Source of the DNA: Reclinomonas americana ATCC 50394
Taxonomy: Eukaryota
Length of the DNA: 64,000 bases
Assembly: GCA_048213135.1 (NCBI GenBank)
Contig: PS015010.1
Coordinates: 1,984,001-2,048,000 of the forward strand
Direction: 5' to 3'
The notes below the pieces were generated by a model. That model was given only the letters and a program-made list of their open reading frames with translations, was not told the origin of the DNA and did not search any database. Numbering within the stretch: position 1 is the stretch's first letter; each line of letters begins with the position of its first letter. This document shows positions 1-21,996 of this stretch, piece by piece. A program made the translations under genes and the position numbers.

Positions 1-520
1 AAATATGGTTGGGGTTACCGGGCCTTACTGCAAGGCAGGCATAGTTTTCATAACGACGGCTTACGGAATCGAATACGGGTGCTGTTGCTGCCTGCCAGTT
101 GGAACCACCATTGCCCGAGATATACAGGGTTTTGTCTGAAGGCGCACCATTCGTTAGTGTTCCGGCATAGAATTTATTGGCGATGGTTGGATGTTTGAAA
201 AGGCAGGATATTTTCCTCCCTCCCAAACCCGCCCTGGACCATTGTTTGGTGGCCAGTTCGTTTTTCCAGACACCGTCGCTGGTGGCTACATACACAAAGC
301 CATTGTTGTAAACAGCCGACTGGAATTCAGATTCGCTCCTGGAAGAACTCAACGTCGCGGGAATAAATCCCTGGTCGATAAAAGTGCCGCCTGCCGCTGC
401 TGCGGTTACGGAAGTTCGCATTGGTTTGCCTTCTGCTGTGGCCGGGTCGGTTTTTTCATTACAGCTGATCAATGCAGCCGGGGATAGAAAAGCGAGTGCG
501 ACAAATAGATTTCTTTTCAT
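1..520 (-). CDS. Lipoprotein with BNR/Asp-box-like beta-propeller (3'-truncated by window edge)
   Basis: Not in the ORF track; read manually from ATG at 520: MKRNLFVALAFLSPAALISC-NEK... (lipobox-like Cys20), VYVATSDGVWK, LYISGNGGSNW (Asp-box-like). Open to the window edge. Confidence 0.75.
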   Translation of the reverse strand, partial: MKRNLFVALAFLSPAALISCNEKTDPATAEGKPMRTSVTAAAAGGTFIDQGFIPATLSSSRSESEFQSAVYNNGFVYVATSDGVWKNELATKQWSRAGLGGRKISCLFKHPTIANKFYAGTLTNGAPSDKTLYISGNGGSNWQAATAPVFDSVSRRYENYACLAVRPGNPNHI

Positions 521-595
521 AAGTACTTACAATTTTTACAAAGGAGATCTTCATGATCTTCCCGCGCAAATATTTGGCTTTAAGTACTGTGATGT

Positions 596-618
596 TATCC
601 CGCAAAGACGTGATTTTT
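596..618 (-). promoter_or_regulatory. Putative regulator binding site (ATCCC-N8-GTGAT), copy 1
   Basis: TATCCCGCAAAGACGTGATTTTT, 21/23 identical to 11640-11662. Both copies start 30 nt from GCAAATAT (minus-strand -7-like ATATTTGC). Confidence 0.6.
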
Positions 619-973
619 ATTTTACTCCCGGATCCAATTGCAAAAAGTCCCCGTCGATGATCAGCAACTTAACTCCTTCTTCCGTGAAAGAACGATGCGA
701 ACTGAGGTCGTCACTTACTACGTAACTCATGCCCGCAGATAGCTGAAAAACTTCACCTGTTTGCAATTCGCTGCTGAATGCGCCTTCGAGGCAATGGACA
801 ATATGCCCTTTTTCGCACCAGTGGTTGGCCAGGTAGCCTTTACTGTATTCCACAATCCGTATCCGCAGGCCCGGGTGCTGTATCGTTCGCCACAGGGCCA
901 TACCGGTATCGCCTTTATGCTCTGTAGTTGCTATTGTATTCCAGTCGATCGCCTGGAAGGGGATATTGCTCAT
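617..973 (-). CDS. DHCW-motif cupin-fold protein
   Basis: MSNIPFQAIDW...YLANHWCEKGHIVHCLEG...SHRSFTEEGVKLLIIDG. Start moved to Met at 973. Confidence 0.8.
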   Translation of the reverse strand: MSNIPFQAIDWNTIATTEHKGDTGMALWRTIQHPGLRIRIVEYSKGYLANHWCEKGHIVHCLEGAFSSELQTGEVFQLSAGMSYVVSDDLSSHRSFTEEGVKLLIIDGDFLQLDPGVK

Positions 974-1090
974 GTTGCTTTCTTCTGAATATTTACCAAA
1001 CATACAAAAAGATGGCAGCCTTTCCGGCACTGCCACCCTGTTAACCACCCAATTGTAAACCATGCTCAGTGATATCATACACAGTTTTTA

Positions 1091-1125
1091 AAAAATGGTG
1101 GCAGCTTTGGGTATCTGCTGCCACC
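1091..1125 (-). terminator. Rho-independent terminator after the RHS gene
   Basis: 9-bp stem GGTGGCAGC/GCTGCCACC (1097-1125) followed on the minus strand by ATTTTT. Confidence 0.65.
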
Positions 1126-1182
1126 CTCGATTCCTGTTCTGGAAAGAAAGCAATCGGCCCTGCTTATGAGAAGATGATCGTT

Positions 1183-4100
1183 CTATTTATGCAACCACGA
1201 GCCAAATTTGCTGAGTAGTTTTTTGGCCTTTTCCTCCTGTTCCTGTTTTGCCTTTTGTTCCTGGGCTGCTTTTGCCGCCTGGGATCGCTGGTACAGAACT
1301 GAGTTGTTCTTATTGACAATAATTCCGCGGGATTTTATCACTCCTTCGGCCTGTTTTGAATTGTACACTTTTTTCTGCCCGAATGTATTCGTGGTAGTGA
1401 CCCTGACATGATAGATCGCTATTGAAGTGCCGCTGCCGCCCGATATTGTACCGCTCCCCCCCTGTTCATCCTCAGCTCCTTCTTCGCCACCCATATCTCC
1501 GCTTGGTGCTTTATCTGTAGCTACAGATACTTTTATTGAACTTTTAGATGAGGTCTTTGATCTCCAGTTGACATCACTTCTTATATCCGCCTTGGTATTG
1601 TCAGGGCTTTGTGTTTCATCTACGATCTCATCGATTATGATCTCAACTTCGGCATGAAATTCAGAGTTATTCAGAAAATCGTCGAATTCGGCGCTCAGCT
1701 GGGTTGGCAATGAACCGCCTCCCATGAATTGCTTCAATATCTTGTCTCTCCAACCCCTGCGCCGGCCGTCGGTACTTTCAAAATCCGATGCCGATTTTCC
1801 ACCGACAGATTTTGGCTTACCCCCTTCATTATAAGTAAAAGAAGTTGCATCCTTAACTATCGATTCGATGAACATTACGATCCCAGATGCATCCAGGGTC
1901 TCATTTGTTACGGGGTCGGTTTGTGGCACAAGTTGTTCATTGTCTGCCAGCTTTCGTTCGCCGGGAACCATACCGTCATAGTCAACAAAGCGTACGGGAT
2001 TATTGAAAGCATAGGCATAAGGAGACCAGCGACGCATTTGTTCGCTCTTCGGGTCCAGTACATGCCAGCGGCCTATTTGCGGATCATACAATCTTGCTCC
2101 GTAATCATACCATTCAAGACCGGAACCATCACTGAATTCTTTATTCTGCAATTCCTTCCCGTTGTACCTGAACTTATTTTCTTTCTTAAGTGCCGCCTTA
2201 CTGCTGATCGCTGCCAGCGTTCCACCAAAAGGATAATAATGTGTTTCTTCCAGCAACGGACCAGACTGGTGATTTACGACCAGGTTGTCGAAATAAACAT
2301 TCATCGGACTTTCATTGCTCAGGTAGATATACAGGTAACCGTTTTTCTGCATCCGCTGAAAAGGAACGGTAATGTCTGCCAGTGCGTCGGAAGTGCTCAC
2401 CTGCCGCACGAGACTGTTACCCGGTACCATATCGAACTGTTCATCAAACAGGATAAAATTCAGGTAAGCTTTGGGCTTGCCGGGATTGTTCTGCCCGGTA
2501 TTGTCCTTCAGCATATTGATGATGGAAGGAATAAAACCCGGTGTAAAAACCTGCCCATTGATCTGCCCGGCAGTTTCTTTATTCCCGGGGATAGCCGGGT
2601 TACCAGTTCCTCCGAATGCGTTCAGCACCTGGTTCAGCAGGTTATTCTGGTTACTGCTGGTATTCTGGCCTTCGAGCTTATAAAAGTATTTCGTTTGTAC
2701 ACTTATCGTATCCCCTGACATTACTTTCAGCAATAAAGCGGGACCAACCTTGACCTGGCCATCCGTGCCATTTAATTTGCTGACATAATCGTTGGGAGAA
2801 GTGGTATTGTCTGCCGGGTAGCCGCCGATCGTGTTTTTAGGAAAACGTGTATTATCGATATTGGCGAACAGCGCATTTTCCTTTACTGAACTTACAGACT
2901 CCATGGTAGCTGCATATATAGCGGTATCTTTCTGTTCTGTCAATATCGCCCGCGTACTTCCAAGATTATCTTTGATGAAATAGTCGTATACAAGCTGATT
3001 GGTTGAATCTTTACGGCGAATTTTCCCATTCTCCGTCAGTATGTGCTGAAGTGTATCGTTTTCATATACAAAACCCGAGATGTAATCCGTGGTGATGATT
3101 CTCACCGGGTTAGCTGTACTGTCTACGACTTTTTTACGCAACTTCTTCCCGGTAGCATCGTACATATAAGTAATGATACCCTTCCCTGATACATACACCT
3201 GCTCCGGTAATGAAAGATGATTGTAAATGATCCCCTGGTAAGGCCCCCTGACAATTCCTTTATTCAGATCACGGGTCAGGTTTCCGTTGCCATCATAACT
3301 ATAGTCGTCGGTTGTGGAAGCATTCCCATCCAGGAAATCTCCTGCACGACTTAAAGGATCGTTTGCAGAATCTGTTACTGCCTTTATTTTGTTGCTGTTC
3401 GGAAAGTAGTCGTAACGTAAGGCATCCATATTGGTGATGCTGGCAACTTTAACACCTTTTTGCCGCATACCCAGCATATTGCCATTCGCATCATAAGAAA
3501 GGTTCTGAACACTGAAATCCATTTTATCTTTTGACCAACCGGATGCGCCTTCATTTTGCTGGTTGAAATCAGCCGATACCAGGCGACTCGAGTGGTCATA
3601 TCCATAACCATACGCCCTTCTGATGCCATCGCCTGCACTTTTCCATTGCTGCCCGGATAAATTGCCGTCGAACTGGTTCACAGAAAAACCATAGTCATAA
3701 CTGATCACCTGGCCGAAGAAATGATTGCTTTGCGAACCATTCACGTAGTTCTCATTGATCCCTGATACCCAGCCCCGGATGTTATAATTATAGTCCGTTG
3801 ATTCAATATTATTACCTGTCACCTGAGTTTTGATCTTACCTGCTTCATTGTATGTCGTCTGCAGGATTGTTTTTTCCGGGGTATTGTCGATTTTTTTGAC
3901 CAGCTTTAAAGCCCTCCCTTCGTGATCGAATTCATTTTTTGTAAGTAAGGTATGGGCCTGCGGGTTTGAATTTCCTTTGTAATGTTTCAGGTGTGTTCTC
4001 AGCACTTTACCTGAGAAGTCGTACTGCGTGGTATTGATCTCTGCCCCTCCTTTGTGGTTGGTAGATTGAACCTGAATAACATTATTATTCTCATCATAAA

Positions 4101-5553
4101 TATTGAGTGTATACAGGTAATTCTGGCTTCCCACTATATTCGTTCTTCCACCGGTCACCTGCCCTTTAGTCAGGTAACTGGCTGTCAGCGGCCTCGCAAA
4201 AAAAGGCGCCTGGTTACCATTCATGATGAAGTTAGCGGCATTGATATTTGACATATCCAGGTTCTTGCTTATTCCTGCAATCCCGTTCGCCCATTCATAG
4301 TTATCATAAAAAACTTCATTCAGGACTACATATGTGCCGGATAACAATACAGGATAAGCCACACTCGTTTTTGCAGCAAGCGTATGGCTGGCAAAACTGC
4401 CATTGTTTGTCCAGATGCCGTTTTGAACAAGCCGGTTGTACTCATCGTATTTGTTGTACAACCATTTTCCCTGGAAACGCTGCACAGAATCCTGTGTCAG
4501 CACTGCCCTGCCTCTTGCATCGTACACTGACAAAAAATCGCCTGCACCGGGAATCCTTTTCCTTACCACCCGGCCATGGCTGTCGTAATAATAGCTGAAG
4601 CAGAGTTCGTTAACGATCGAAGCCGGTAATGTCTTTTTGGGAGTTGTTAACCCGGCAGCATATTCAACTGCCCGAGGGGAAAGCACAAATCTCAGGTTAT
4701 TAAAAACATCATACACATAATAAGTGCACAGCCAGCCGGTACATCCCGCAGAAGGATTAGCTGCAGATTGTATCTTTTTCAATACGAGCATGTTCTCCTT
4801 GTTCTTGTATTCGACCGACATTTTCCCATTCTCACTTTCAGTAATGGTCTTCGTAAGTACACCGGGAGAAAAACAGGCGTCCGTGTATGGCAAAGCAGTC
4901 GTTGCATCAATAAGCCATTCCCTGACTGAATCAGCATTTGCATTTGATCCATACCTGGTTATTTTGCCGCGATTACTGCCGGCCCACGAATTACCGGCAT
5001 CCAATTGCCTGGTAATCCTTTTCAACGGAGAGTTCTCGATCTCCTCTTTTGAATAAATGAATTGTTCGGCCGGGAATTGCCCTTTATTGAAAACAGAGTC
5101 TTCCTGAAATGCGTTATACTTAAACCCACCGTCATTGGTATTATCGCCGGGAATCAATGAAAGAGAGGCAAAGGGCAGATAGCTGTATTCTTCCCCGTTC
5201 ATTTCATTAAATATCTTGGGGACAACCATATCCTTTTTCCCGGGAGTAGTTTGCCGCGATACACTCTGGATAGGTCTTCCCAATCCATCGGCATAATTGG
5301 TAACTACACCCACTTCTTCAACAGATTTCAGAACAAGGGCGGCCGCCTCCTTTTCCGGCCCCTTTGCCAGCCATGTTCGTACATAGTTCAGTTTCGCATC
5401 CGCCTTATATGCAGCAGGCAGCCTTTGCGGTGTGATCACAGGAGCCGGCACGCCGCCGTTCACCGGCACATTACTTTGCGCACACAATGACGATGCGGAA
5501 AACAAAGTGGCGGCGGTCACCACGCATTGAATCAGTTTGATTATTTTTCGCAT
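1183..5553 (-). CDS. RHS repeat-associated core protein (DUF6443-like N-terminus, polymorphic C-terminus)
   Basis: Signal peptide MRKIIK...SLCA-Q; YADGLGRPIQ; YD repeats; core motifs HYYPFG, YNGKELQ, YDYGARLYDPQIGRW, YAYAFNNPVRFVDYDG. Confidence 0.93.
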   Translation of the reverse strand: MRKIIKLIQCVVTAATLFSASSLCAQSNVPVNGGVPAPVITPQRLPAAYKADAKLNYVRTWLAKGPEKEAAALVLKSVEEVGVVTNYADGLGRPIQSVSRQTTPGKKDMVVPKIFNEMNGEEYSYLPFASLSLIPGDNTNDGGFKYNAFQEDSVFNKGQFPAEQFIYSKEEIENSPLKRITRQLDAGNSWAGSNRGKITRYGSNANADSVREWLIDATTALPYTDACFSPGVLTKTITESENGKMSVEYKNKENMLVLKKIQSAANPSAGCTGWLCTYYVYDVFNNLRFVLSPRAVEYAAGLTTPKKTLPASIVNELCFSYYYDSHGRVVRKRIPGAGDFLSVYDARGRAVLTQDSVQRFQGKWLYNKYDEYNRLVQNGIWTNNGSFASHTLAAKTSVAYPVLLSGTYVVLNEVFYDNYEWANGIAGISKNLDMSNINAANFIMNGNQAPFFARPLTASYLTKGQVTGGRTNIVGSQNYLYTLNIYDENNNVIQVQSTNHKGGAEINTTQYDFSGKVLRTHLKHYKGNSNPQAHTLLTKNEFDHEGRALKLVKKIDNTPEKTILQTTYNEAGKIKTQVTGNNIESTDYNYNIRGWVSGINENYVNGSQSNHFFGQVISYDYGFSVNQFDGNLSGQQWKSAGDGIRRAYGYGYDHSSRLVSADFNQQNEGASGWSKDKMDFSVQNLSYDANGNMLGMRQKGVKVASITNMDALRYDYFPNSNKIKAVTDSANDPLSRAGDFLDGNASTTDDYSYDGNGNLTRDLNKGIVRGPYQGIIYNHLSLPEQVYVSGKGIITYMYDATGKKLRKKVVDSTANPVRIITTDYISGFVYENDTLQHILTENGKIRRKDSTNQLVYDYFIKDNLGSTRAILTEQKDTAIYAATMESVSSVKENALFANIDNTRFPKNTIGGYPADNTTSPNDYVSKLNGTDGQVKVGPALLLKVMSGDTISVQTKYFYKLEGQNTSSNQNNLLNQVLNAFGGTGNPAIPGNKETAGQINGQVFTPGFIPSIINMLKDNTGQNNPGKPKAYLNFILFDEQFDMVPGNSLVRQVSTSDALADITVPFQRMQKNGYLYIYLSNESPMNVYFDNLVVNHQSGPLLEETHYYPFGGTLAAISSKAALKKENKFRYNGKELQNKEFSDGSGLEWYDYGARLYDPQIGRWHVLDPKSEQMRRWSPYAYAFNNPVRFVDYDGMVPGERKLADNEQLVPQTDPVTNETLDASGIVMFIESIVKDATSFTYNEGGKPKSVGGKSASDFESTDGRRRGWRDKILKQFMGGGSLPTQLSAEFDDFLNNSEFHAEVEIIIDEIVDETQSPDNTKADIRSDVNWRSKTSSKSSIKVSVATDKAPSGDMGGEEGAEDEQGGSGTISGGSGTSIAIYHVRVTTTNTFGQKKVYNSKQAEGVIKSRGIIVNKNNSVLYQRSQAAKAAQEQKAKQEQEEKAKKLLSKFGSWLHK

Positions 5554-5574
5554 AAAATTATTTTTTATGACCGG

Positions 5575-5608
5575 CATGGAGCAACACCTCTCCCGGCATT
5601 GCTCCATG
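5575..5608. other. Intergenic stem-loop between YD and RHS genes
   Basis: 10-bp perfect inverted repeat CATGGAGCAA/TTGCTCCATG. Confidence 0.5.
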
Positions 5609-5627
5609 GCAGTCTGTTAATTGAATA

Positions 5628-8600
5628 TTACTGGGGTATGGTACAACCCGGAATTTTTACAGATTTCCTGAAGTTGCCGCTGTTCGGACCGCAATCCCAT
5701 TCATAATGATAAATGGTGATCCTGTAACAACCCTCATCATAAGGAGGTTCTTCCACCTTCCGGCCCAGTACACACACATTATTGATCTTTCGGTATCCCT
5801 CTCCTGTACATGCAGGAGTTACAGGACAGATCGTGGTATTGGTACCGATGATACCGGTAAGCCTGGTTTGATTATAAGTAGGGCTATAAGGGTTTTTATC
5901 TTTCTCAATATTCTTATACTGCCCCGTACGGTTTCCACAGGCGTCGGATACACATTCCCACCCGTAGTACTGCCAATCCGGAGTTATGGGGCATGCTGCA
6001 GCATCTATACCCATTCTCACCCACCTGAACTGGTTGTAGGTTGGGCTGTATAAACTGGTGTCCACCTGCTTTTTCAATCGGTACCCGGTATTGTAAATAT
6101 TACCGGCGCCAATATCCATTCCTGTTTCACAACGCATTTCACCAGGGAAGACATCCTTCCATCCCGGCGCTGTACTGCGCTCCTGTTTGCGGTATTGATA
6201 GTCGATGAGCTGCAGGATATTACCGTCCTGGTCACGTAAGGCCTTCAGCCTGTTCATCACATCGTATTCATAATAAGCGATGATGTTATCGGCCGAATTC
6301 CTGCTCAGTATGCCGGTACCCACCTCGTAAGTATAAGTTACCATTTCCGCTTTTTCAGGATACAGGCGCAGCTCATCTATCAGCCCGTAACCGGAAACGG
6401 TTACAGAAGTGGTTGCCGTACCCGTTATATGCTCGTAATAGGTCCAGCCCCTGTCATTCGTTTTTCCTGCAACGGCTGGTATCCCGTTCACGTTGTAAGC
6501 CCCGTTCTTCGACCAGTAGGAGACAATATATTTATTGCCCGCGCTAAGCCCGTTTTTACTGATGCTTCCATTGACTAACTGGTAGGCATACCTGCCGGTG
6601 AGTACATCGGAGGAAGTGCGTACATATGCCGACCCCGAACCAATGTACCAGCCCCCATCGATATTGCTGAAGCTTTCAAAACTGGTAAAGGCGATATTAT
6701 TGCTGGTGGCATTACTTACTTCCGCAGCGGGGTTACCGGTAAGATCGTCCCATACATAGCTGTAAGGCAAGTCGTTGCTCCTGCGTTGCTGCCTGACATT
6801 GCCATACAGGTCGTACTGTTCAATGTCATACTTTCTTTCCATGGGCTCCGTACCATTTTGTATCGACATCCCGGACATGGCCGTTTGGTTATGGCCGAAT
6901 GCGTCGAAATTTTTGTAATGGTTACGGATGCGGATGGTATTGATTCCCTGGCGCTGCTTCTGCTCTTCCAGCACTGCTGCCGTCATACCGATCGATTTCA
7001 TGTTGCCGATCGCTTCCAGCTCTTCGGGTGTAAGTCCCTGCATGCTGCCTTCATCACCGGGATATTTGTACAGCACAACGCTGCTGTCTTTATCTGTCGC
7101 ATTATTTTTCACCACAATCCTTTTTGCAAGCTGCAGGCTGTTATCATATTCATATCCTTTTTCAATAGTAAAACCATCCTGCATATGAATTTCTCTGCTA
7201 ATCCTCGGGAACCCCAGGATGAGCCTGTTATTGGAGATGGCGAAGAAATCATTAATACCATCGTTATCAACGTCCATATAAGAGTTGTCGCGGCATACAG
7301 AGGCACCATTGGGGTTAGGGCATGGGCAATCGACAAGTCCTTTACTGGCTTTTACAGAGAGCAGGGCTTCCTCTTTAAATGCATACTCAAAACTGTCTTT
7401 CTTCACTACCTGCCCGTCGCTGTTGTAATAATTCTCACTCAATACCAGGCCTGTCTTGTACGCGTAAGACTCCGGTGACCCGAAAGGCTTGACGGCGTTG
7501 ATCAGGTCGGGATAGAGAACAGGGGAAGTATAATTCGTTACGATCTTCCCGTTGGGCTGGCCTTTGTATACTTCCCAGTCGGTTACCTGCTGGTAGCCTA
7601 CGGGGCTGCCCGAGGTTTCACCAAGTATGACCTGGCTTGAGCCTACAATCGTTCGGTTAAGACAGGCCACTTCATTCGTGGAATTGGGATAGGTATGTAT
7701 GGGGTAACTGTTATAAATGTATTTAGGCTCAGCATAAATAACACCGCTGGACACGTTGTGACCGTTGCGCTGCATGTTATAATCATACCTTCTGATCTTA
7801 GTCACATTCCCTATGGAATCATGATCACTGACCTGCTTCACCCGCAGCCCTCCCATTTTCTTCCGGATAACTTTTTCCGAACTATTGTAAGTGAACGACA
7901 CATTGAAAGTAACGTTGTCGGGTAATTTTACACCGGGTATACTATCCTTCTGGAAAGGCCTGGTGGTAGCTTTCGCTTCCAGCTTATAGGTACCCGGCTG
8001 CAAGGTCTTCGGAAAAGTGCCCTGCGTATTATTGATGCCCAGCTTATAGCTGAACACTTCGCTGTAATTGTTCTGTGCCGGGTTAAACTGGAAAAGCGAC
8101 ACAACGGGAAAATTCAGGATTCCCGGTCCGCAGAATACTCCACCATCGGGATTGGAATTACACGGCGCCAGAAAAGCATTATACTCAAAAGTCGCATCAC
8201 ACACAGCACTCACAGAGAACACTTTCGAAACGATATTGTAATCAGGACTCGTGAACCCCTGACCGGATGAATAAACAGAGTGGGTTGTATCCCTTACAAA
8301 ATAGAGGTCTTTATCCTCAAGCGCTTCATTTTGTAAAAAGCTGTATTCGTTCTGTTCATAGTCCAGTTGCGTAGTGCCACCAGTCGGGTAAGTGATCTTT
8401 TCCAGCACCTGCGCCTTTGTTTTAATGAAGTCCGGGTCCCTGTCTGATCCACCGTTCAGGTTCACGTAGTTCCAGCCTGGTACATTCACTTCAGCATAGG
8501 ATGGAAGCAATGTTCCGCCATTATTGAAATAACCCCAGTGATCGATATTTTCCCTTCCCGCGATCCTGTCGGGCAACGATACCGTGTTATATGCAAATTC

Positions 8601-9821
8601 ATAGGGCGGTACGGGCATGCTTTCATCGTTCGCTATTTTCTGTACAGACTTCAGCATAAGGCGGTTGCCCTGGTAGAAGTATTTCAGTTCAGCTTTTTCA
8701 ATCCTTTTCATCCCCGATCCGGTATCCCGCGAAACAACAATAGCGTCGAGTGACCTGTCGTTGATGGTAGCGGGGAGATCGAGCCGCCTGTTGTTATAAA
8801 TAAAATCAATGTAAATGCGGCTCTCGGGTATTGTTATCTGTTTTAGTTTTTTGCCTTTAATATAGGTACGGCTCCTGCTATTGCTTAGCTGCACATGCGT
8901 CGATGTATTTGGGAACGCAAGGATGCAGTTGCTGCCCGACCATGCGGTATGCGTTTCCGTATTGGTTTTGATGGTCTCGTAATCGGTGTTGTAATCGTCA
9001 TAGGCAAAATGTACCTCCCCTCTGCTGAACCCGTTAACACTGCTGATGTCTGTCAGGAACCAGCTGGAAGTATACTCTTCCACGGGCATTATCAGCGGAT
9101 TACAAGGATCCGTTTCGTGCGGGATCTTTTCTGTTCTTGTTCTTTCAAGTGCGGCAAAAGTGTACTTTAACCCGTCGGGCGTAACAATTTGCCATTCTGA
9201 TATACCGCCGTTGGCAAACCGGTAATTCACTTTCAGTGGCACGTCGCTGCTTACAACCAGCGGATCACCCGGGTTCGCGCTGCCCGTATCGCGGAATGAC
9301 ATCTTACCGGAATAACCATTAAAGGAAAAGTAGAATTCATCAGGCTCACCATCATACCGGCTGCCCGTAAGGCCGAGCAATACCGTCCACCCGTTAATGG
9401 TATTATTAAAAGGCGTTGCCAGGTTGTAAATATTGGTTTTCCACCCGGCCTGGTTGATCTTACCCCTGGGTGCATCGTCGGGGATGCCTTTTACTTTACG
9501 GGAGATCATACCCCCGGCATTCAGTTTCCAGCCCAGCCCCGTATAGCTGGCCACTTCATCCACTTTATTGCCCGAAGTATGATAGCTTAGCGAAATGGGT
9601 ACGCCGGTTGTTTTGCCGGCGGCATTCACCAGTGGAATGCTGATGTCGGCCGTGCCGGTATACTTGCTCACAGGAATATCCTGGAATTTGAACAGCATCG
9701 CTGCTTCCGGTGAAGCAGGTGCAAAATTAACTTTCAGACCACCCGGACCATCCTGCGCCACCAGCCCCTGCAAGGCTGTAAACAGCAGGATACTCATCAA
9801 TGGTATCACTTTTTTGAACAT
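5628..9821 (-). CDS. Secreted YD-repeat protein with SpvB/TcB-like N-terminus and Cys-rich C-terminal repeats
   Basis: Signal peptide; TGTADISIPL...ISLSYHTSG...GLGWKLNAGGMISRKVKGIPDD; DHWGYFN; LEKITYPTGG; GGLRVKQV; YEYDVMNRLKALRDQDGNI. Confidence 0.85.
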   Translation of the reverse strand: MFKKVIPLMSILLFTALQGLVAQDGPGGLKVNFAPASPEAAMLFKFQDIPVSKYTGTADISIPLVNAAGKTTGVPISLSYHTSGNKVDEVASYTGLGWKLNAGGMISRKVKGIPDDAPRGKINQAGWKTNIYNLATPFNNTINGWTVLLGLTGSRYDGEPDEFYFSFNGYSGKMSFRDTGSANPGDPLVVSSDVPLKVNYRFANGGISEWQIVTPDGLKYTFAALERTRTEKIPHETDPCNPLIMPVEEYTSSWFLTDISSVNGFSRGEVHFAYDDYNTDYETIKTNTETHTAWSGSNCILAFPNTSTHVQLSNSRSRTYIKGKKLKQITIPESRIYIDFIYNNRRLDLPATINDRSLDAIVVSRDTGSGMKRIEKAELKYFYQGNRLMLKSVQKIANDESMPVPPYEFAYNTVSLPDRIAGRENIDHWGYFNNGGTLLPSYAEVNVPGWNYVNLNGGSDRDPDFIKTKAQVLEKITYPTGGTTQLDYEQNEYSFLQNEALEDKDLYFVRDTTHSVYSSGQGFTSPDYNIVSKVFSVSAVCDATFEYNAFLAPCNSNPDGGVFCGPGILNFPVVSLFQFNPAQNNYSEVFSYKLGINNTQGTFPKTLQPGTYKLEAKATTRPFQKDSIPGVKLPDNVTFNVSFTYNSSEKVIRKKMGGLRVKQVSDHDSIGNVTKIRRYDYNMQRNGHNVSSGVIYAEPKYIYNSYPIHTYPNSTNEVACLNRTIVGSSQVILGETSGSPVGYQQVTDWEVYKGQPNGKIVTNYTSPVLYPDLINAVKPFGSPESYAYKTGLVLSENYYNSDGQVVKKDSFEYAFKEEALLSVKASKGLVDCPCPNPNGASVCRDNSYMDVDNDGINDFFAISNNRLILGFPRISREIHMQDGFTIEKGYEYDNSLQLAKRIVVKNNATDKDSSVVLYKYPGDEGSMQGLTPEELEAIGNMKSIGMTAAVLEEQKQRQGINTIRIRNHYKNFDAFGHNQTAMSGMSIQNGTEPMERKYDIEQYDLYGNVRQQRRSNDLPYSYVWDDLTGNPAAEVSNATSNNIAFTSFESFSNIDGGWYIGSGSAYVRTSSDVLTGRYAYQLVNGSISKNGLSAGNKYIVSYWSKNGAYNVNGIPAVAGKTNDRGWTYYEHITGTATTSVTVSGYGLIDELRLYPEKAEMVTYTYEVGTGILSRNSADNIIAYYEYDVMNRLKALRDQDGNILQLIDYQYRKQERSTAPGWKDVFPGEMRCETGMDIGAGNIYNTGYRLKKQVDTSLYSPTYNQFRWVRMGIDAAACPITPDWQYYGWECVSDACGNRTGQYKNIEKDKNPYSPTYNQTRLTGIIGTNTTICPVTPACTGEGYRKINNVCVLGRKVEEPPYDEGCYRITIYHYEWDCGPNSGNFRKSVKIPGCTIPQ

Positions 9822-9866
9822 ACGAATAGTGTATTTAAAATGTAGGATTACTAATGTTTACTATGA

Positions 9867-11309
9867 TCAGAATGCTATACCGAACCGTATTTTGAAAGCT
9901 TCGGTATGCGGTAAACTTTGCCTGTGAAGGAAATCATACAGGATGGTAATGGTATTGCTGCGGGTACGGCTCTTGCCCCATTTATTTCCTAAAAAAGATT
10001 TCCCGAAACTCATCTTCTTACCAATCCCCATAAGGGCGCTGCTCTTCCATGCATGTTGTTTACCGATATCACTGATGCTGCCGAAGCTGTTGAAATAATT
10101 CTGTTCCCATCCACCGCTCAGAAAGAAATTCTTTTTCAGCTCCATTTTGCAATAAGAGGTAATACCGATACCCTGGTTGCTAAGGGCGATCTTTTTAAAA
10201 CCTTCTCCCAGTCCCAGCCTGTACATAAAGCCGATACCCATCGATGCCTTGTCTGAGAATTTATAACCGGCCGACAACATCACTTCGGTACTGGCCGGGA
10301 GCATGGCATTTTTCCCGGTAAACTTGAGATTGCTCCCCAGTTCCATACGCTGAAGGAAAGTTTTGGTCTTAATATCTTTGGGTTTAAAATCAGGCAAATC
10401 ATCCGCATTGGCAGACCCTGAAAGTTTCTGTTTCAGCTCATCCATTTTGGCATGAACGATTTGCAGTTGCTGCGACATCAGGCCTTTTACATCGACCGAA
10501 GAAGAAGAAAGCTTTTCCTTTAATACGACCTGTATCATATCGCGGGTTTGCAGACCAGCCACAGACTGATCTCCCTGAGATACCGGGAAAAGCCCGGCCA
10601 GCATGGAGTTTTCTTTCATAAAAGATTTGAATGCCGGCAACTCTCTCAAAACCGACAACAGTTTTTCTTCGATTTTTGAAGGATTAGACAGTAGTTCCTT
10701 ATAATTTTTTACCTTTTCATTATAATAATAGAATTCCTTTTTTACAGCACCCAGGTAATCCTGCACCTGCTTCTTATATTTGTCACCAAGTTTCACCAGG
10801 ATATTTTGCTGCTCCTGCAACAGCGCCTTTATCTTATCGGCACTGCCGATGGCTGCCTTTACATTTCCGAGCAGTTCCAGGTTCTTTAGCAGTGCAGGGT
10901 TTCCCTGGGGGAGACTGGCATTTTTCAATTTTCCCAGGAACCCCAGGCTGCCTGCAAGCGTGTCCAGGTAAGGCTGGTAATTGTAGCGGACAGATGTCCC
11001 CGCTTCGCTGAAAAACGATGTGGCACGTGCGACCGGGTCGCCTATCATAGCGCTGTTCAACAGCGAATCGGTGCCGGGTTTACGCATCAGCTTTCTTTGT
11101 TTTCCTGCCATTCTTTTCAGGAACTTTTCAGTTGCCGACCGGATGTCTGAGTTGAATTTTTCGAGTTTATTATTTACGGCATCCTGGTAAGAGTCATGGA
11201 TCGACTTGATCAATTCGATTTTCGCTGTACTTCTTTCCTGCGCATTTGTCCCAGTATGGCAGAATACAAAAACCAGGATCATCACGGCAACAGTAAAAAT
11301 TTTACGCAT
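9867..11309 (-). CDS. Secreted protein, helical/coiled-coil N-part and predicted C-terminal beta-barrel
   Basis: 480-aa ORF; signal peptide ending TNA-Q; Lys/Glu/Leu-rich helical region; alternating amphipathic strands in the last ~165 aa; ends KIRFGIAF. Confidence 0.75.
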   Translation of the reverse strand: MRKIFTVAVMILVFVFCHTGTNAQERSTAKIELIKSIHDSYQDAVNNKLEKFNSDIRSATEKFLKRMAGKQRKLMRKPGTDSLLNSAMIGDPVARATSFFSEAGTSVRYNYQPYLDTLAGSLGFLGKLKNASLPQGNPALLKNLELLGNVKAAIGSADKIKALLQEQQNILVKLGDKYKKQVQDYLGAVKKEFYYYNEKVKNYKELLSNPSKIEEKLLSVLRELPAFKSFMKENSMLAGLFPVSQGDQSVAGLQTRDMIQVVLKEKLSSSSVDVKGLMSQQLQIVHAKMDELKQKLSGSANADDLPDFKPKDIKTKTFLQRMELGSNLKFTGKNAMLPASTEVMLSAGYKFSDKASMGIGFMYRLGLGEGFKKIALSNQGIGITSYCKMELKKNFFLSGGWEQNYFNSFGSISDIGKQHAWKSSALMGIGKKMSFGKSFLGNKWGKSRTRSNTITILYDFLHRQSLPHTEAFKIRFGIAF

Positions 11310-11727: not shown

Positions 11728-13740
11728 ATGTCCGCTTTAAAAAAGGTCTTCCTCTACCTGGCGATCCTGCTCCTTGGTGTGCCCCTTTGTAACGGGGCGC
11801 AAAGGCCCGGGTTTGAAAAAGAAAGAGATGAAGCCATTAAAAATCTCAATAAAATAAATAACAATGATACTGCCCGTGTCAATGCCCTCCTGAAAGTGTT
11901 TTCAAGCGCTACGTACTTAAAAGAATGGAAGACGGTAATGCCTTACTGCGAGGAAGCACTGGTATTGAGCCGCCGGCTGAATTATGAAAAAGGCCTTACC
12001 GGTTGCTATCGTTATCTCGGCCATTATTACAAGAGTGCATCGAACCGCCAAATGGCCCAGGCCTGTTTCGATTCAGTGATCCGGATTGCAGGCGACCGGG
12101 AAGATAAAACACTTCTCGAACACAAAGCGGTGGCGCAAAGATGGAAAGGCAGGATATACCACGACCAGGAGAATTATTACATGGCACTGCAATATTATTT
12201 CGATGCGCTTCCCTATTTTGAACAGCACATTTCAAGGACCACTTATTTTATTTACAGCGATATTTCCGGTATCTATATGGAACTGAATAACCTGGATAAA
12301 GCGCTGGAATATGGAAAGAAAAATATAACATTGGCAGAGAAAGACACCAGTAAAATCATGCTTTTGCAGGCGTATTTGGGTTTTGTCAACATTTGCCTGG
12401 AGAAGAATGACCTGCCAACCGCATCCATGTATCTCGATAAAGCGGAGCCTTATATTCCCCAGCCCAACGAGATTCTCGTCAACTATGCTTACTACCAGAG
12501 ACGCGGGCACATCGCATTTCAGCAAAAAAAATTTGCTGCTTCCTATGGGTACTACCTCCGGGCTTATCATTACTCGGAGATGAGTGGCCATTACACGCAT
12601 ATGTGTCTTTCATTACACTACCTCTCCCAGAATGCAATGGAACTGGGCAATATGGCCGATGCAAGGAAATTTGCTTTCCGTAACCTGGAACTGGCAGAAC
12701 AGGCGAACAGCAAGAGTTCCAGGATTGATGCACTGCTGAATGTTGCGGCTTATTACAACAAAACCGGCAATTCAGGCAAGGCCGCCTATGATTACCTGAA
12801 ACAGGCTATGCTACTAAAGGATACACTTGTATCGGATAAGAACCTCAGGCAGATCAACAGCCTGGAGGCCTTGTATGAATCAGACAAGAAGGAAAAAGCC
12901 ATTATTCAGCTGCAAAAAGAAAAAGCATTGCAGATGGCAGCAGCGAAAAGAAATTCGTTACTGAATAAAATATTTTTTGTTTCTATAATCGTTCTCCTCC
13001 TTTTCGGATATCTTTTCTACAATCTTTTCCGGAACAGGCAGCAGATATCGAACCAAAAACAAACCATGCAGGAACAAAAGATCGTCCAGCTGGAAAAAGA
13101 CAGGAAACTGACAGCAATAGGCGCTATGCTGAAAGGCCAGGAAGAAGAAAGAAGCCGAATTGCCAAAGACCTGCACGACGGTTTAGGCGGGTTGTTGTCA
13201 GGTACTAAATTATCGCTGCTGAATGTAAGGGAGAATATTTTACTCAATCATGAAAATGCTGTTTATTTTGACAGGGCATTGAGCATGCTGGACAATTCTA
13301 TCGGCGACCTGCGTAAAGTGGCACATAACCTGATGCCGGAAACACTGGTCAAATTCGGATTGCCGGATGCGTTAAGTGATTTTTGTAATTCGGTAAAATT
13401 ATTTTCCAATGCGGATGTCATATATCAGCAGTTCGGGGAGCCGCATCCACTGAGCGGTACCGCGGAAGTGTTTATTTACCGCATCATACAGGAATTAGTG
13501 AATAATGCCGTACGGCACGCCGATGCCAGGCAGATCATTGTACAACTGAGTATGAACAGCGATAAAACCAGGATCACAGTTGAAGATGATGGGAAAGGAT
13601 TTGACGAAAATTGCCTGGTCAGGTCAAAAGGCGCCGGGATGTCGAATATCAGGTACAGGGTGGAGTATTTCAATGGATCTCTCGATATAGAGACCGCGCC
13701 GGGTAAAGGAACATCTGTCAATATCGAATTAAATATATAA
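11728..13740 (+). CDS. TPR-repeat sensor histidine kinase (HisKA_3/NarX type)
   Basis: Signal peptide, TPR-like helices, TM segment, EERSRIAKDLHDGLGG H-box, ELVNNAVRHA, VEDDGKGF, GAGMSNI. Confidence 0.93.
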   Translation: MSALKKVFLYLAILLLGVPLCNGAQRPGFEKERDEAIKNLNKINNNDTARVNALLKVFSSATYLKEWKTVMPYCEEALVLSRRLNYEKGLTGCYRYLGHYYKSASNRQMAQACFDSVIRIAGDREDKTLLEHKAVAQRWKGRIYHDQENYYMALQYYFDALPYFEQHISRTTYFIYSDISGIYMELNNLDKALEYGKKNITLAEKDTSKIMLLQAYLGFVNICLEKNDLPTASMYLDKAEPYIPQPNEILVNYAYYQRRGHIAFQQKKFAASYGYYLRAYHYSEMSGHYTHMCLSLHYLSQNAMELGNMADARKFAFRNLELAEQANSKSSRIDALLNVAAYYNKTGNSGKAAYDYLKQAMLLKDTLVSDKNLRQINSLEALYESDKKEKAIIQLQKEKALQMAAAKRNSLLNKIFFVSIIVLLLFGYLFYNLFRNRQQISNQKQTMQEQKIVQLEKDRKLTAIGAMLKGQEEERSRIAKDLHDGLGGLLSGTKLSLLNVRENILLNHENAVYFDRALSMLDNSIGDLRKVAHNLMPETLVKFGLPDALSDFCNSVKLFSNADVIYQQFGEPHPLSGTAEVFIYRIIQELVNNAVRHADARQIIVQLSMNSDKTRITVEDDGKGFDENCLVRSKGAGMSNIRYRVEYFNGSLDIETAPGKGTSVNIELNI

Positions 13741-13742
13741 GT

Positions 13743-14363
13743 ATGACCAGGGTTTATATTGTGGACGATCATTCTGTTGTTGTGGAAGGCATATACTCTC
13801 TTCTGCAAAGGGAAAAAGATATTGAGGTGACCGGTTATGCCGGCAGTGCAGAAAATTGCCTGCAGCACTTTTCAACACATACTGCCGATGTCATATTAAT
13901 GGACATCAGCCTCCCCGACGCAAGTGGCATCGACCTTTGTAAAGCTATAAAGAAAAGATACCCGGGCATTATGGTACTTGCACTGACTACCTTTAACCAG
14001 GGTACTTATGTAAGGAAAATGATGGAAAGCGGCGCCAGTGGTTACCTGTTGAAGAACGCCGGAAAAAAAGAGATCATCGATGCCATTAAGACGGTTACTG
14101 CCGGAAAAACCTACCTGAGTTTTGACGCCGGGCAGGCGTTGAAATCCGATCAGCAACTCCGCAATACTATCCCCATACTCACGAAAAGAGAAAAGGAGGT
14201 GCTTGCCTACATTGCTGAGGGACTTACCAACCCGCAAATATCACAGCAACTTTTTATCAGCATCGATACGGTCGACAGTCACCGAAAAAACCTTCATACC
14301 AAACTGAATGTAAAGAATACGGCCATGCTGATCCGATTTGCGGTTGAGAATAATTTACTCTAA
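13743..14363 (+). CDS. NarL/LuxR-family response regulator
   Basis: IVDDH, ILMDISLPD, GYLLK, LTKREKEVL...TVDSHRKNLHTKL HTH. Confidence 0.95.
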   Translation: MTRVYIVDDHSVVVEGIYSLLQREKDIEVTGYAGSAENCLQHFSTHTADVILMDISLPDASGIDLCKAIKKRYPGIMVLALTTFNQGTYVRKMMESGASGYLLKNAGKKEIIDAIKTVTAGKTYLSFDAGQALKSDQQLRNTIPILTKREKEVLAYIAEGLTNPQISQQLFISIDTVDSHRKNLHTKLNVKNTAMLIRFAVENNLL

Positions 14364-21918: not shown

Positions 21919-21922
21919 GTTG

Positions 21923-21996
21923 CGGACTGGACGGGACTCGAACCCGCGACCTCCGCCGTGACAGGGCGGCATTCTAACCAACTGAACTACCAATCC
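21923..21996 (-). tRNA. tRNA-Asp (GTC)
   Basis: Reverse complement GGATTGGTAGTTCAGTTGGTTAGAATGCCGCCCTGTCACGGCGGAGGTCGCGGGTTCGAGTCCCGTCCAGTCCG; cloverleaf; CCA not encoded. Confidence 0.97.

Follow-up and report, generated by a model that had tools for sequence, protein, structure and literature searches.

A putative split, Sec-exported RHS toxin cassette of Chitinophagaceae type with a predicted outer-membrane barrel partner

We analyzed a 64,000-nucleotide stretch of DNA (hereafter the window: positions 1,984,001 to 2,048,000 of contig PS015010.1 in assembly GCA_048213135.1, deposited as Reclinomonas americana ATCC 50394), near one end of which three adjacent genes, here named A, B, and C, appear to encode a secreted toxin system. 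The interpretation that we favor, and to which we assign a probability of about 0.55, is that this cassette represents a two-part, Sec-exported polymorphic RHS toxin that occurs across Bacteroidota, here in its Chitinophagaceae-type form, with A as a lineage-specific accessory. Judged by sequence profiles, the cassette belongs with the known polymorphic toxins that combine a signal peptide, SpvB, and RHS, as a split variant without the propeller. C is the cargo carrier, made up of DUF6443, RHS repeats, the Rhs core, and a polymorphic tail; B is a gene of its own here and is fused ahead of C in other lineages; and A belongs to an undescribed family of outer-membrane partners, unnamed in the libraries that we searched. 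The coordinates of all features are given in Table 1.

That B and C form one functional unit is well supported by comparative sequence evidence, namely the synteny of A, B, and C, the occurrence of B–C pairs on plasmids, natural fusions, and the toxin-locus behavior of relatives. We compared 80 genomic loci containing A homologs (L001–L080), which are the best 80 of 155 matches to one peptide pattern, a choice that makes the sample lean toward Chitinophagaceae. A B homolog is present in 61/72 of the loci that have at least 1.5 kb of downstream sequence; among the 52 whose downstream sequence reaches at least 9 kb, B occurs in 43 and C in 40, and in 39 of the 52, from many genera, the genes stand in the order A–B–C on one strand, with gaps mostly below 60 nt. 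An original prediction, drawn from the letters of the window alone, had tied the barrel-protein homologs to YD/RHS genes and had named a neighborhood survey as a check, and the linkage is confirmed by these counts. A tblastn search of plasmids with the start of B returned 24 records, all from Bacteroidota, and in each of the seven loci inspected among them (L081–L087, from Cytophagales and Flavobacteriales: Runella, Pontibacter, Chondrinema, three Hymenobacter, and Empedobacter, the last as degenerate fragments) B is followed by C; profile hidden Markov models (HMMs) of B and C match all seven. In NCBI annotation, the members of the plasmid pair are labeled "RHS repeat domain-containing protein" and "DUF6443 domain-containing protein". 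The plasmid pairs include one on the conjugative Runella plasmid pRUNSL03, and we note in passing that several cassettes likewise lie beside conjugation or mobilization genes (T4 coupling protein, relaxase, and NikA-like; L007, L029, L035, L064, and L074).

Among the 120 best B relatives are natural B–C fusions of 2048–2445 aa containing DUF6443 and RHS_repeat, and in 10 of the 12 long matches inspected, a B-like part (extending to B residue ~1210) is followed after 12–40 residues by a C-like part beginning with DUF6443; the junctions can be seen, for example, in the fused proteins P0136 and P0137. In the Runella pRUNSL03 fusion WP_013921753 (2175 aa), DUF6443 occupies residues 1059–1171, and the gene is followed by an Imm9 immunity gene. 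The terminal YD hairpins of B thus run straight into DUF6443 in the fusions, which fits one continuous spiral and is compatible with the composite shell originally predicted.

In the window, all three open reading frames (ORFs) lie on the minus strand. As judged by eye, each protein starts with basic residues, continues with a hydrophobic core, and then has a small-x-small site with Gln directly behind it, the putative cleavage sites being ..TNA/QE (Q24) in A, ..LVA/QD (Q23) in B, and ..LCA/QS (Q26, counted from Met19) in C. The post-signal Gln reaches at least 90% conservation in the A, B, and C family alignments alike, in keeping with the Q-rule that describes Bacteroidetes substrates of signal peptidase I (PMC5837995 and PMC10653852). 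The original prediction of three co-oriented genes, each with a Sec signal peptide and a Gln behind it, is therefore upheld. Its spacings are upheld in part: the 45-nt gap between A and B is reproduced, whereas the 57-nt gap between B and C is not, as that distance comes to 20 nt for the longest C ORF, 50 nt for a start at Met11, and 74 nt for a start at Met19 (nt 5553), the residue at which the signal peptide begins. No type IX secretion system (T9SS) sorting domain or Por_Secre_tail was matched at E ≤ 0.1 in A, B, or C (Pfam and NCBIfam), and no VgrG, PAAR, TcA, or T9SS-machinery family was found among the 43 window ORFs of at least 90 aa (39 scanned at E ≤ 1e-5 and the four cassette ORFs at E ≤ 0.1); the family scans agree here with what had been noted from the sequence, that none of the three proteins ends in a T9SS C-terminal domain and that the window has no VgrG, PAAR, or TcA gene.

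For C, the view of the third gene as an RHS core protein with a variable tail holds, given its match to TIGR03696 and a tail that is unique to it; apart from a start of Bacteroidota type, C is an ordinary polymorphic RHS carrier. YD repeats are recognized by YD_repeat_2x (E 7e-5); among PDB sequences, only the Rhs core of TccC2 was matched (E 6.9e-7), and hhalign places the C core on SepC residues 570–680 with a probability of 94%. The Rhs core is the autoproteolysis module in characterized Rhs and TcC proteins. In the C family alignment, conservation extends to the D..G motif at the end of the core, and the sequences diverge beyond it. The insert of ~215 aa ahead of the core (residues ~903–1118) is conserved in C alignments and skipped in the fused relatives P0136 and P0137; it matched no PDB sequence, and SepC did not align to it. 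A profile of the DUF6443 region likewise found nothing informative among PDB sequences beyond YD repeats, and we found no mention of DUF6443 in the literature searched. In some relatives, orphan fragments consisting of an Rhs core and a tail stand 3′ of the full C gene (L003:20571-21362, L023:20208-21230, and L078:20695-21330), much as classical Rhs loci hold spare toxin cassettes. In 27 of 30 relatives, a small and mostly singleton ORF begins on the same strand no more than 120 nt after C; given these small ORFs and the orphan core fragments, the relatives behave as polymorphic toxin–immunity loci.

For B, of which we found 752 relatives at E ≤ 1e-3, the likeness to TcB is concentrated at the start of the protein. 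A family profile of the first 350 residues matched YenB residues 35–220 among PDB sequences at E 6.8e-4, and SpvB (6p0x) at E 0.13; with hhalign, B matched SepB at E 9.6e-4 and an alignment of four plasmid-derived TcB proteins at E 1.1e-5 (probability 82%, 198 columns). Pfam gave only a weak match of B's own sequence to TcdB_toxin_midN (E 0.053), seen in 0/40 homologs; the Pfam SpvB family was unreached by the window protein and came near threshold in 1/40 homologs (21.5 bits against a cut-off of 22). Near residues 1160–1210 there are one or two YD repeats, with weak matches to Rhs and teneurin chains (E ~0.03), and a single weak RHS_repeat lies near the C-terminus in 19 of the 40 homologs, followed in 10 of the 40 by DUF5977 at the position of the window protein's extension. 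That extension (residues 1216–1397) is lineage-specific and varies among homologs. At the sequence level we detected neither an FG-GAP/VCBS propeller nor a mid-N/mid-C region in B, and a profile of its middle part found nothing informative among PDB sequences beyond YD repeats. The original description of B as a YD protein with an SpvB/TcB-like start is thus sound as regards the start and overstated as regards YD, of which there are one or two repeats. We also note a glutathione-peroxidase-like gene of 170–190 aa between B and C in 11 loci (L002:14913-15443, L025:15406-15924, and nine more), though not in the window; two of three tested matched Pfam GSHPx (E 8e-23 and 5e-20), and the gene may be connected with the Cys-rich ends of some B proteins.

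B is exchanged between otherwise similar cassettes. Across 48 homologs, the center of B has a top-residue frequency of 0.14–0.24 and a gap fraction of 0.34–0.53, against top-residue frequencies of 0.47–0.58 at both ends (residues 23–122 and 1123–1215). Over 35 complete loci, A and C distances are correlated (Spearman 0.70, Mantel p 0.001), whereas B distances are uncorrelated with those of A and C (−0.01 and 0.07); the B distances approach saturation (median 0.74), an effect that alone depresses such correlations and counts against our interpretation, although the pairs of near-identical loci agree regardless. Across the 26 pairs of loci whose A proteins share at least 80% identity, B has a median identity of 0.22 (0.12–0.33) and C one of 0.61 (maximum 0.88). 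In the clearest case, the proteins of L009 and L012 are 98.9% (A), 89.8% (C), and 27.4% (B, at 12754-16026 in L009 and 12727-16287 in L012) identical, and the DNA is collinear at 85–90% through A and an adjoining gene, X1 (described below), loses all similarity across B, regains it inside C, and loses it once more in the tail. The pair L041/L048 shows the same DNA pattern; in the two pairs, B is 24–27%, A 96–99%, and C 88–90% identical. Based on these alignments, B is a module that is replaceable as a whole gene. Replacement while C stays 88–90% identical is unlike what one expects of a partner with a large co-evolving shell interface, and is as expected of a module that docks through conserved ends.

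These observations bear on an explanation that we consider unlikely, if a serious one, in which C closes on its own into a complete Rhs cocoon plugged by DUF6443, and B is a secreted accessory (an adhesin or receptor-binding protein), perhaps attached through its last YD hairpins and contributing no shell wall. Single-chain Rhs shells are known (7pq5, 7q97, and 8cp6), hhalign of B against C recovers one YD repeat only, and the hypervariable center of B and the decoupling of its evolution from that of C would both suit such an accessory. On the other hand, the start of B is homologous to part of TcB, which forms a cocoon, the fusions set B in frame directly ahead of DUF6443, and DUF6443 has no match among PDB sequences, so that no structure backs a role as plug.

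We turn to A, whose family is large and uniform: 381 of 8000 candidates scored were matches, and the family comprises 2578 representative clusters at E ≤ 1e-3 (972 at E ≤ 1e-30), with nearly all relatives coming from Chitinophagaceae genomes, and with the best 150 all 450–634 aa long and none of those 150 fused. The AlphaFold2 model, built from 42 sequences (mean predicted local distance difference test score, pLDDT, 73; predicted TM-score 0.42), consists of helices at 22–297 followed by eight strands at 322–479 with pLDDT 85–94. The C-terminus reads ..FGIAF, and a terminal Phe is found in 170/262 family members. Both the original description of a 480-aa helical protein ending in strands and a Phe, and the check that it had proposed, a β-barrel prediction for 9867–11309, are borne out: Foldseek against PDB places A with the OmpA transmembrane domain, OprF-N, NspA, Ail, and designed eight-stranded barrels at a probability of 0.99–1.0, with target-normalized TM-scores (TMt) of up to 0.61 and E-values that are weak (from 1.6e-3), and Foldseek against viral models finds phage-encoded Opa/OMP barrels (TMt up to 0.66, root-mean-square deviation 3.7 Å). 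The most conserved motif of the family sits at the linker–barrel junction, overlapping the low-pLDDT stretch 292–314, with P306, D307, F308, K309, P310, K316, F318, R321, and E323 invariant or at least 90% conserved. A matched no Pfam or NCBIfam family, nor any POTRA, Omp85, or DUF560 family at E ≤ 0.1; PHROGs gave nothing for A and a negligible match for B; and PADLOC recognized none of A, B, C, and the cupin gene described below. In the literature searched, which left out most subscription journals, we came across no account of either the A family or the A–B–C cassette. Three other candidate identities were set aside: a BAR domain for the helical part (Foldseek probability 0.3–0.7, root-mean-square deviation above 40 Å, too weak to be used), a PorP/SprF-like T9SS partner (no family match), and a spanin-like lysis factor (no support).

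The fold constrains what A can do. A barrel of eight strands has no lumen for a folded or unfolded protein of 150 kDa, so that A cannot be the export channel for B and C, and the earlier proposal that the barrel exports the YD and RHS proteins fails on size. A barrel with an even number of strands has both of its termini facing the periplasm. The role that is most likely for A is instead to tether or organize B–C at the outer membrane, and elsewhere tail-fibre-like proteins, rather than to conduct them. No cassette gene, therefore, accounts for the passage of B–C across the outer membrane.

This weighs directly on the original prediction in its full form, according to which B and C are halves of one closed cocoon of the TcB–TcC type and A is a dedicated exporter or anchor, together forming a route apart from type VI secretion (T6SS), T9SS, and TcA. 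The TcB-type start of B and the continuity from YD to DUF6443 in the fusions speak for it, as do the combined length of the B core and the C shell (~2380 aa, near that of TcB plus TcC, with SepB at 1428 aa and SepC at 973 aa), the A–B–C order in 39/52 loci, and the lack of a TcA-size ORF in the 80 loci. We nevertheless judge it improbable in this form, as the eight-stranded barrel has no export lumen, A is missing in 7/7 plasmid B–C loci, the body of B shows no propeller, midN/midC, or RHS likeness, and B is swapped while C remains 88–90% identical; C also measures ~1170 aa from signal peptide to core, which is above the shell part of the solved single-chain Rhs proteins (1121–1481 aa in total). 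For all the synteny in 39/52 loci, A is neither needed by B–C in general, being missing from the plasmid loci, nor confined to it, as it also stands with X1 in loci with no B–C.

X1, which does not occur in the window, is a secreted tail-fibre-like family of ~350 aa whose N-terminal part is variable and whose conserved C-terminal segment finishes in a coiled coil (examples are L005:11450-12601, L037:11446-21430, and L079:14679-21027). It matches PHROG tail-fibre families at E-values down to 1.7e-14 and the Bdellovibrio fibre bd2133 weakly (E 0.031); the likeness to the trimeric Bdellovibrio fibres (8ond and 8oml) concerns X1 and not the window, and X1 is linked to A by gene order alone. X1 directly adjoins A in 35/80 loci, some loci hold arrays of 4–8 X1 copies with neither B nor C, and A heads such arrays in L037 (8 X1 copies) and similarly in L030 and L018. 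In the Chondrinema plasmid locus, where A is absent, a 700-aa protein (L083:6799-8901) is encoded directly upstream of B. It shows a weak, below-cut-off match (E 4.5e-5) to DUF2490, a family predicted to form outer-membrane barrels, and may be an unrelated stand-in for A.

These loci raise the possibility that A stands outside the toxin system altogether, as a general envelope protein or a partner of X1 at a recombination-prone spot where B–C inserts. The occurrence of A with X1 and no B–C (L037, L030, and L018) or alone in six loci, the adjacency of X1 and A, and the existence of B–C without A would all follow from such an arrangement. We nonetheless find it doubtful, since the three genes are tightly spaced on one strand in 39/52 loci from many genera, some of the loci with A only are decayed cassettes with B fragments (L031 and L052, in which A stands with fragments of B only), and A and C distances are correlated at 0.70, though shared descent alone could give this correlation.

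Several further points weigh against the interpretation favored here. The HMMs of A and X1 found nothing at E ≤ 0.01 in six-frame ORFs up to 9 kb from the B match in any of the seven plasmid loci, and in ~6/52 loci (L019, L044, L051, L053, L059, and L070 are those with A alone) A stands without B, C, or X1. Past residue ~280 nothing in B aligns to TcB (hhalign covers the first ~200 columns), and sequence profiles give the body of B no RHS likeness beyond one or two YD repeats. The tethering role that we infer for A as an anchor or platform derives purely from fold and gene order, and the periplasmic position of its helical domain from textbook barrel topology. As regards the toxin role of C, its tail is without known family or relatives: it matched no Pfam family, had no BLAST match in the 80 related loci and no usable Atlas match, and its sole relative among 5.8 billion proteins of 810–2580 aa is a shorter copy of the same protein. 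Finally, the place where an immunity gene would be expected holds only a cupin gene of a widespread family, 104–209 nt from C, and no tightly coupled immunity ORF.

Taken at face value, the last points would suit a cassette that is no weapon at all, in which B and C are structural or adhesion proteins of the surface or periplasm, a role that has been put forward for certain bacterial YD proteins resembling teneurins, and the tail is non-toxic. The tail of C in the window, which also contains low-complexity Gly/Ser/Glu and Lys/Glu-rich stretches, has neither a toxin family nor relatives nor an adjoining immunity-like ORF. The relatives, however, make this very improbable, with their variable tails, the small ORF after C in 27/30, the Imm9 gene after the Runella fusion, and the orphan cores.

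For the favored interpretation, that of a two-part Sec-exported polymorphic toxin with A as its accessory, the following mechanism can be proposed. A, B, and C would each cross the inner membrane by Sec, and the new N-terminal Gln would presumably be cyclized. The conserved C-terminal YD segment of B would dock on, or continue into, the DUF6443/YD spiral of C, as is suggested by the contiguity of B and C in the fusions, and the C shell would enclose the tail after self-cleavage, as in other Rhs and TcC proteins. B, exchanged as a whole gene, may supply a variable function in delivery or target recognition. The barrel of A would anchor the helical domain of ~300 residues in the outer membrane, with that domain in the periplasm.

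The cassette sits in a Bacteroidota chromosome of soil type. Its surroundings in the window are unremarkable chromosomal genes, among them rpoB/rpoC, rplA/rplJ, accA, and numerous two-component systems, and we found no flanking repeats or tRNA marking an island, the sole tRNA lying at 21922–21996. The kinase and regulator genes divergent from A (Table 1) are weakly supported candidates for regulators of the cassette; in 8/80 loci, one of the three genes upstream of A encodes a related response regulator. A strict Bacteroidetes-type promoter pattern had no match upstream of A, and sigma-70 and terminator scans were not usefully above shuffled sequence.

Table 1. Features of the cassette and its neighbors, in window coordinates. 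Residue positions in C follow the numbering of the 1474-aa ORF unless counted from Met19.
Feature	Nucleotides	Residues	Strand	Basis or remark
Gene A	9867-11309	480 aa	-	ORF and translation
A signal peptide		1-23	-	
A helical domain		~24-297	-	AlphaFold2 model
A linker		298-317	-	low confidence in model
A most conserved motif, LPDFKP..KTKTFLQR	10341-10397	305-323	-	just ahead of strand 1
A OmpA/Opa-like eight-stranded barrel ending in Phe (predicted)	9870-10346	322-480	-	AlphaFold2, Foldseek
Gene B	5628-9821	1397 aa	-	ORF and translation
B signal peptide		1-22	-	
B conserved core		23-1215	-	
B TcB/SpvB-type N-terminal region	8982-9737	~29-280	-	profile comparisons
B hypervariable, indel-rich center	7806-8255	523-672	-	48 homologs
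B C-terminal YD repeats	6177-6455	1123-1215	-	conservation 0.46-0.55; end that abuts DUF6443 in fused forms
B Cys-rich extension	5631-6176	1216-1397	-	10 of the protein's 19 Cys; duplicated YSPTYNQ
Gene C	1183-5553 from Met19; longest ORF to 5607	1456 aa from Met19; 1474 aa for longest ORF	-	
C DUF6443	4954-5376	78-218	-	Pfam E 7.4e-27
C non-YD insert, ~215 aa	2254-2901	~903-1118	-	just ahead of Rhs core
C Rhs-associated core	1969-2238	1124-1213	-	TIGR03696 E 5.2e-17
C variable tail, putative toxin, 261 aa	1186-1968	1214-1474	-	no family match
DHCW-motif cupin gene	617-1078		-	NF038084 E 1.6e-48, match from residue 38; likely start ~973
Likely lipoprotein (..LISC..)	2-520			beyond cupin, running off window edge
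TPR/HisKA_3 histidine kinase and LuxR-type response regulator	11728-14363		+	divergent from A; Pfam

The question that the cassette addresses is how giant Sec-exported RHS toxins of Bacteroidota that have no T9SS signal cross the outer membrane, a step for which the relevant sections of earlier work offer only a pathway label (TcdB/TcaC; PMC3482391) or a hypothesis (TANFOR; PMC7073777). A, B, and C, often with X1, make up a small conserved gene set that is testable in culturable, non-pathogenic Chitinophaga. Whole-gene exchange of B would add another axis of polymorphism to that of the toxin tail, and if B is indeed the targeting part, this would account for SpvB/TcB-type N-terminal modules being the mark of a separate trafficking class and would amount to a propeller-less, TcA-independent use of the TcB start. 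More speculatively, and we think this a long shot, A, X1, B, and C might together be an undescribed Sec-dependent contact weapon of Bacteroidota anchored in the outer membrane, a counterpart of ABC toxins without TcA, in which A (2578 clusters) serves as envelope platform, perhaps as a cargo-selecting factor in vesicle budding (in view of the weak BAR-like matches), and swappable B proteins and fibres set the target specificity for an RHS-encapsulated toxin.

Comparison with known systems places each part of the cassette. A shares its fold at residues 322–480 and its C-terminal Phe with the eight-stranded outer-membrane barrels (the OmpA transmembrane domain, OprF-N, NspA, Ail, and Opa), and differs from them in having no Pfam or NCBIfam match to those families and in carrying an N-terminal helical domain of ~300 aa in place of a C-terminal peptidoglycan-binding domain. 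It is unlike the exporters of Omp85-type two-partner secretion, with their 16-stranded barrel and POTRA domains, and those of the Slam type, with their 14-stranded DUF560 barrel, as it has eight strands and no POTRA, Omp85, or DUF560. The single-chain Rhs effectors (7pq5, which is Tre23/Rhs1; 7q97; and 8cp6, which is Tse5), to which both C and the end of B show weak YD matches, follow the same plan of YD shell, Rhs core, and polymorphic tail. Those effectors are T6SS cargo with N-termini linked to PAAR or VgrG, whereas the cassette has a Sec signal and DUF6443 instead, with no PAAR or VgrG found in the window.

The Tc toxins are closer. Their B–C cocoon (YenB/YenC2 and SepB/SepC) is likewise encoded by two adjacent genes that are sometimes fused, the first with an SpvB/TcaC-type start, and TcC, like C, consists of RHS repeats, an Rhs core, and a variable C-terminal domain. 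According to PMC7861908, the variable regions of TcC are typically 201–400 aa, a range that includes the 261-aa tail of C, and TcC size is 851–1050 aa in 97.2%, a range that C exceeds with 1456 aa, having DUF6443 and the insert of ~215 aa. The cassette differs from Tc toxins in the Sec signal peptides on all of its proteins, in showing no propeller or midN/midC likeness in B that is detectable in sequence, and in having B as its hypervariable partner; moreover, no ORF of at least 1500 aa lies outside the B and C clusters in the 80 loci, and there is no TcA among the window ORFs. The Tc toxin of Y. entomophaga, according to PMC10847048, is released by lysis that depends on a type 10 secretion system (T10SS).

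The best fit is to the "TcdB/TcaC-type" polymorphic toxins, which combine a signal peptide, SpvB, an integrin-like β-propeller, RHS, and a C-terminal toxin, followed by an immunity gene, and which Zhang et al. 2012, in the sections on this class, put under a "TcdB/TcaC-like export pathway" and list for Bacteroidetes (PMC3482391). The fused B–C relatives fit this class best, while the window version is split into two genes and its propeller is undetected; no outer-membrane partner is named for the class, and the term "outer membrane protein" does not occur in the first 300,000 characters of that paper (PMC3482391). TANFOR toxins, which are large Bacteroidetes polymorphic toxins with a signal peptide, and for which a T9SS route is hypothesized from neighboring T9SS substrates in the portions of PMC7073777 that treat them, share with the cassette an unexplained passage across the outer membrane and differ in their N-terminal domain and in having no RHS shell. 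Where TANFOR genes have T9SS substrates as neighbors (PMC7073777), the conserved neighbor in the present cassette is the barrel protein A.

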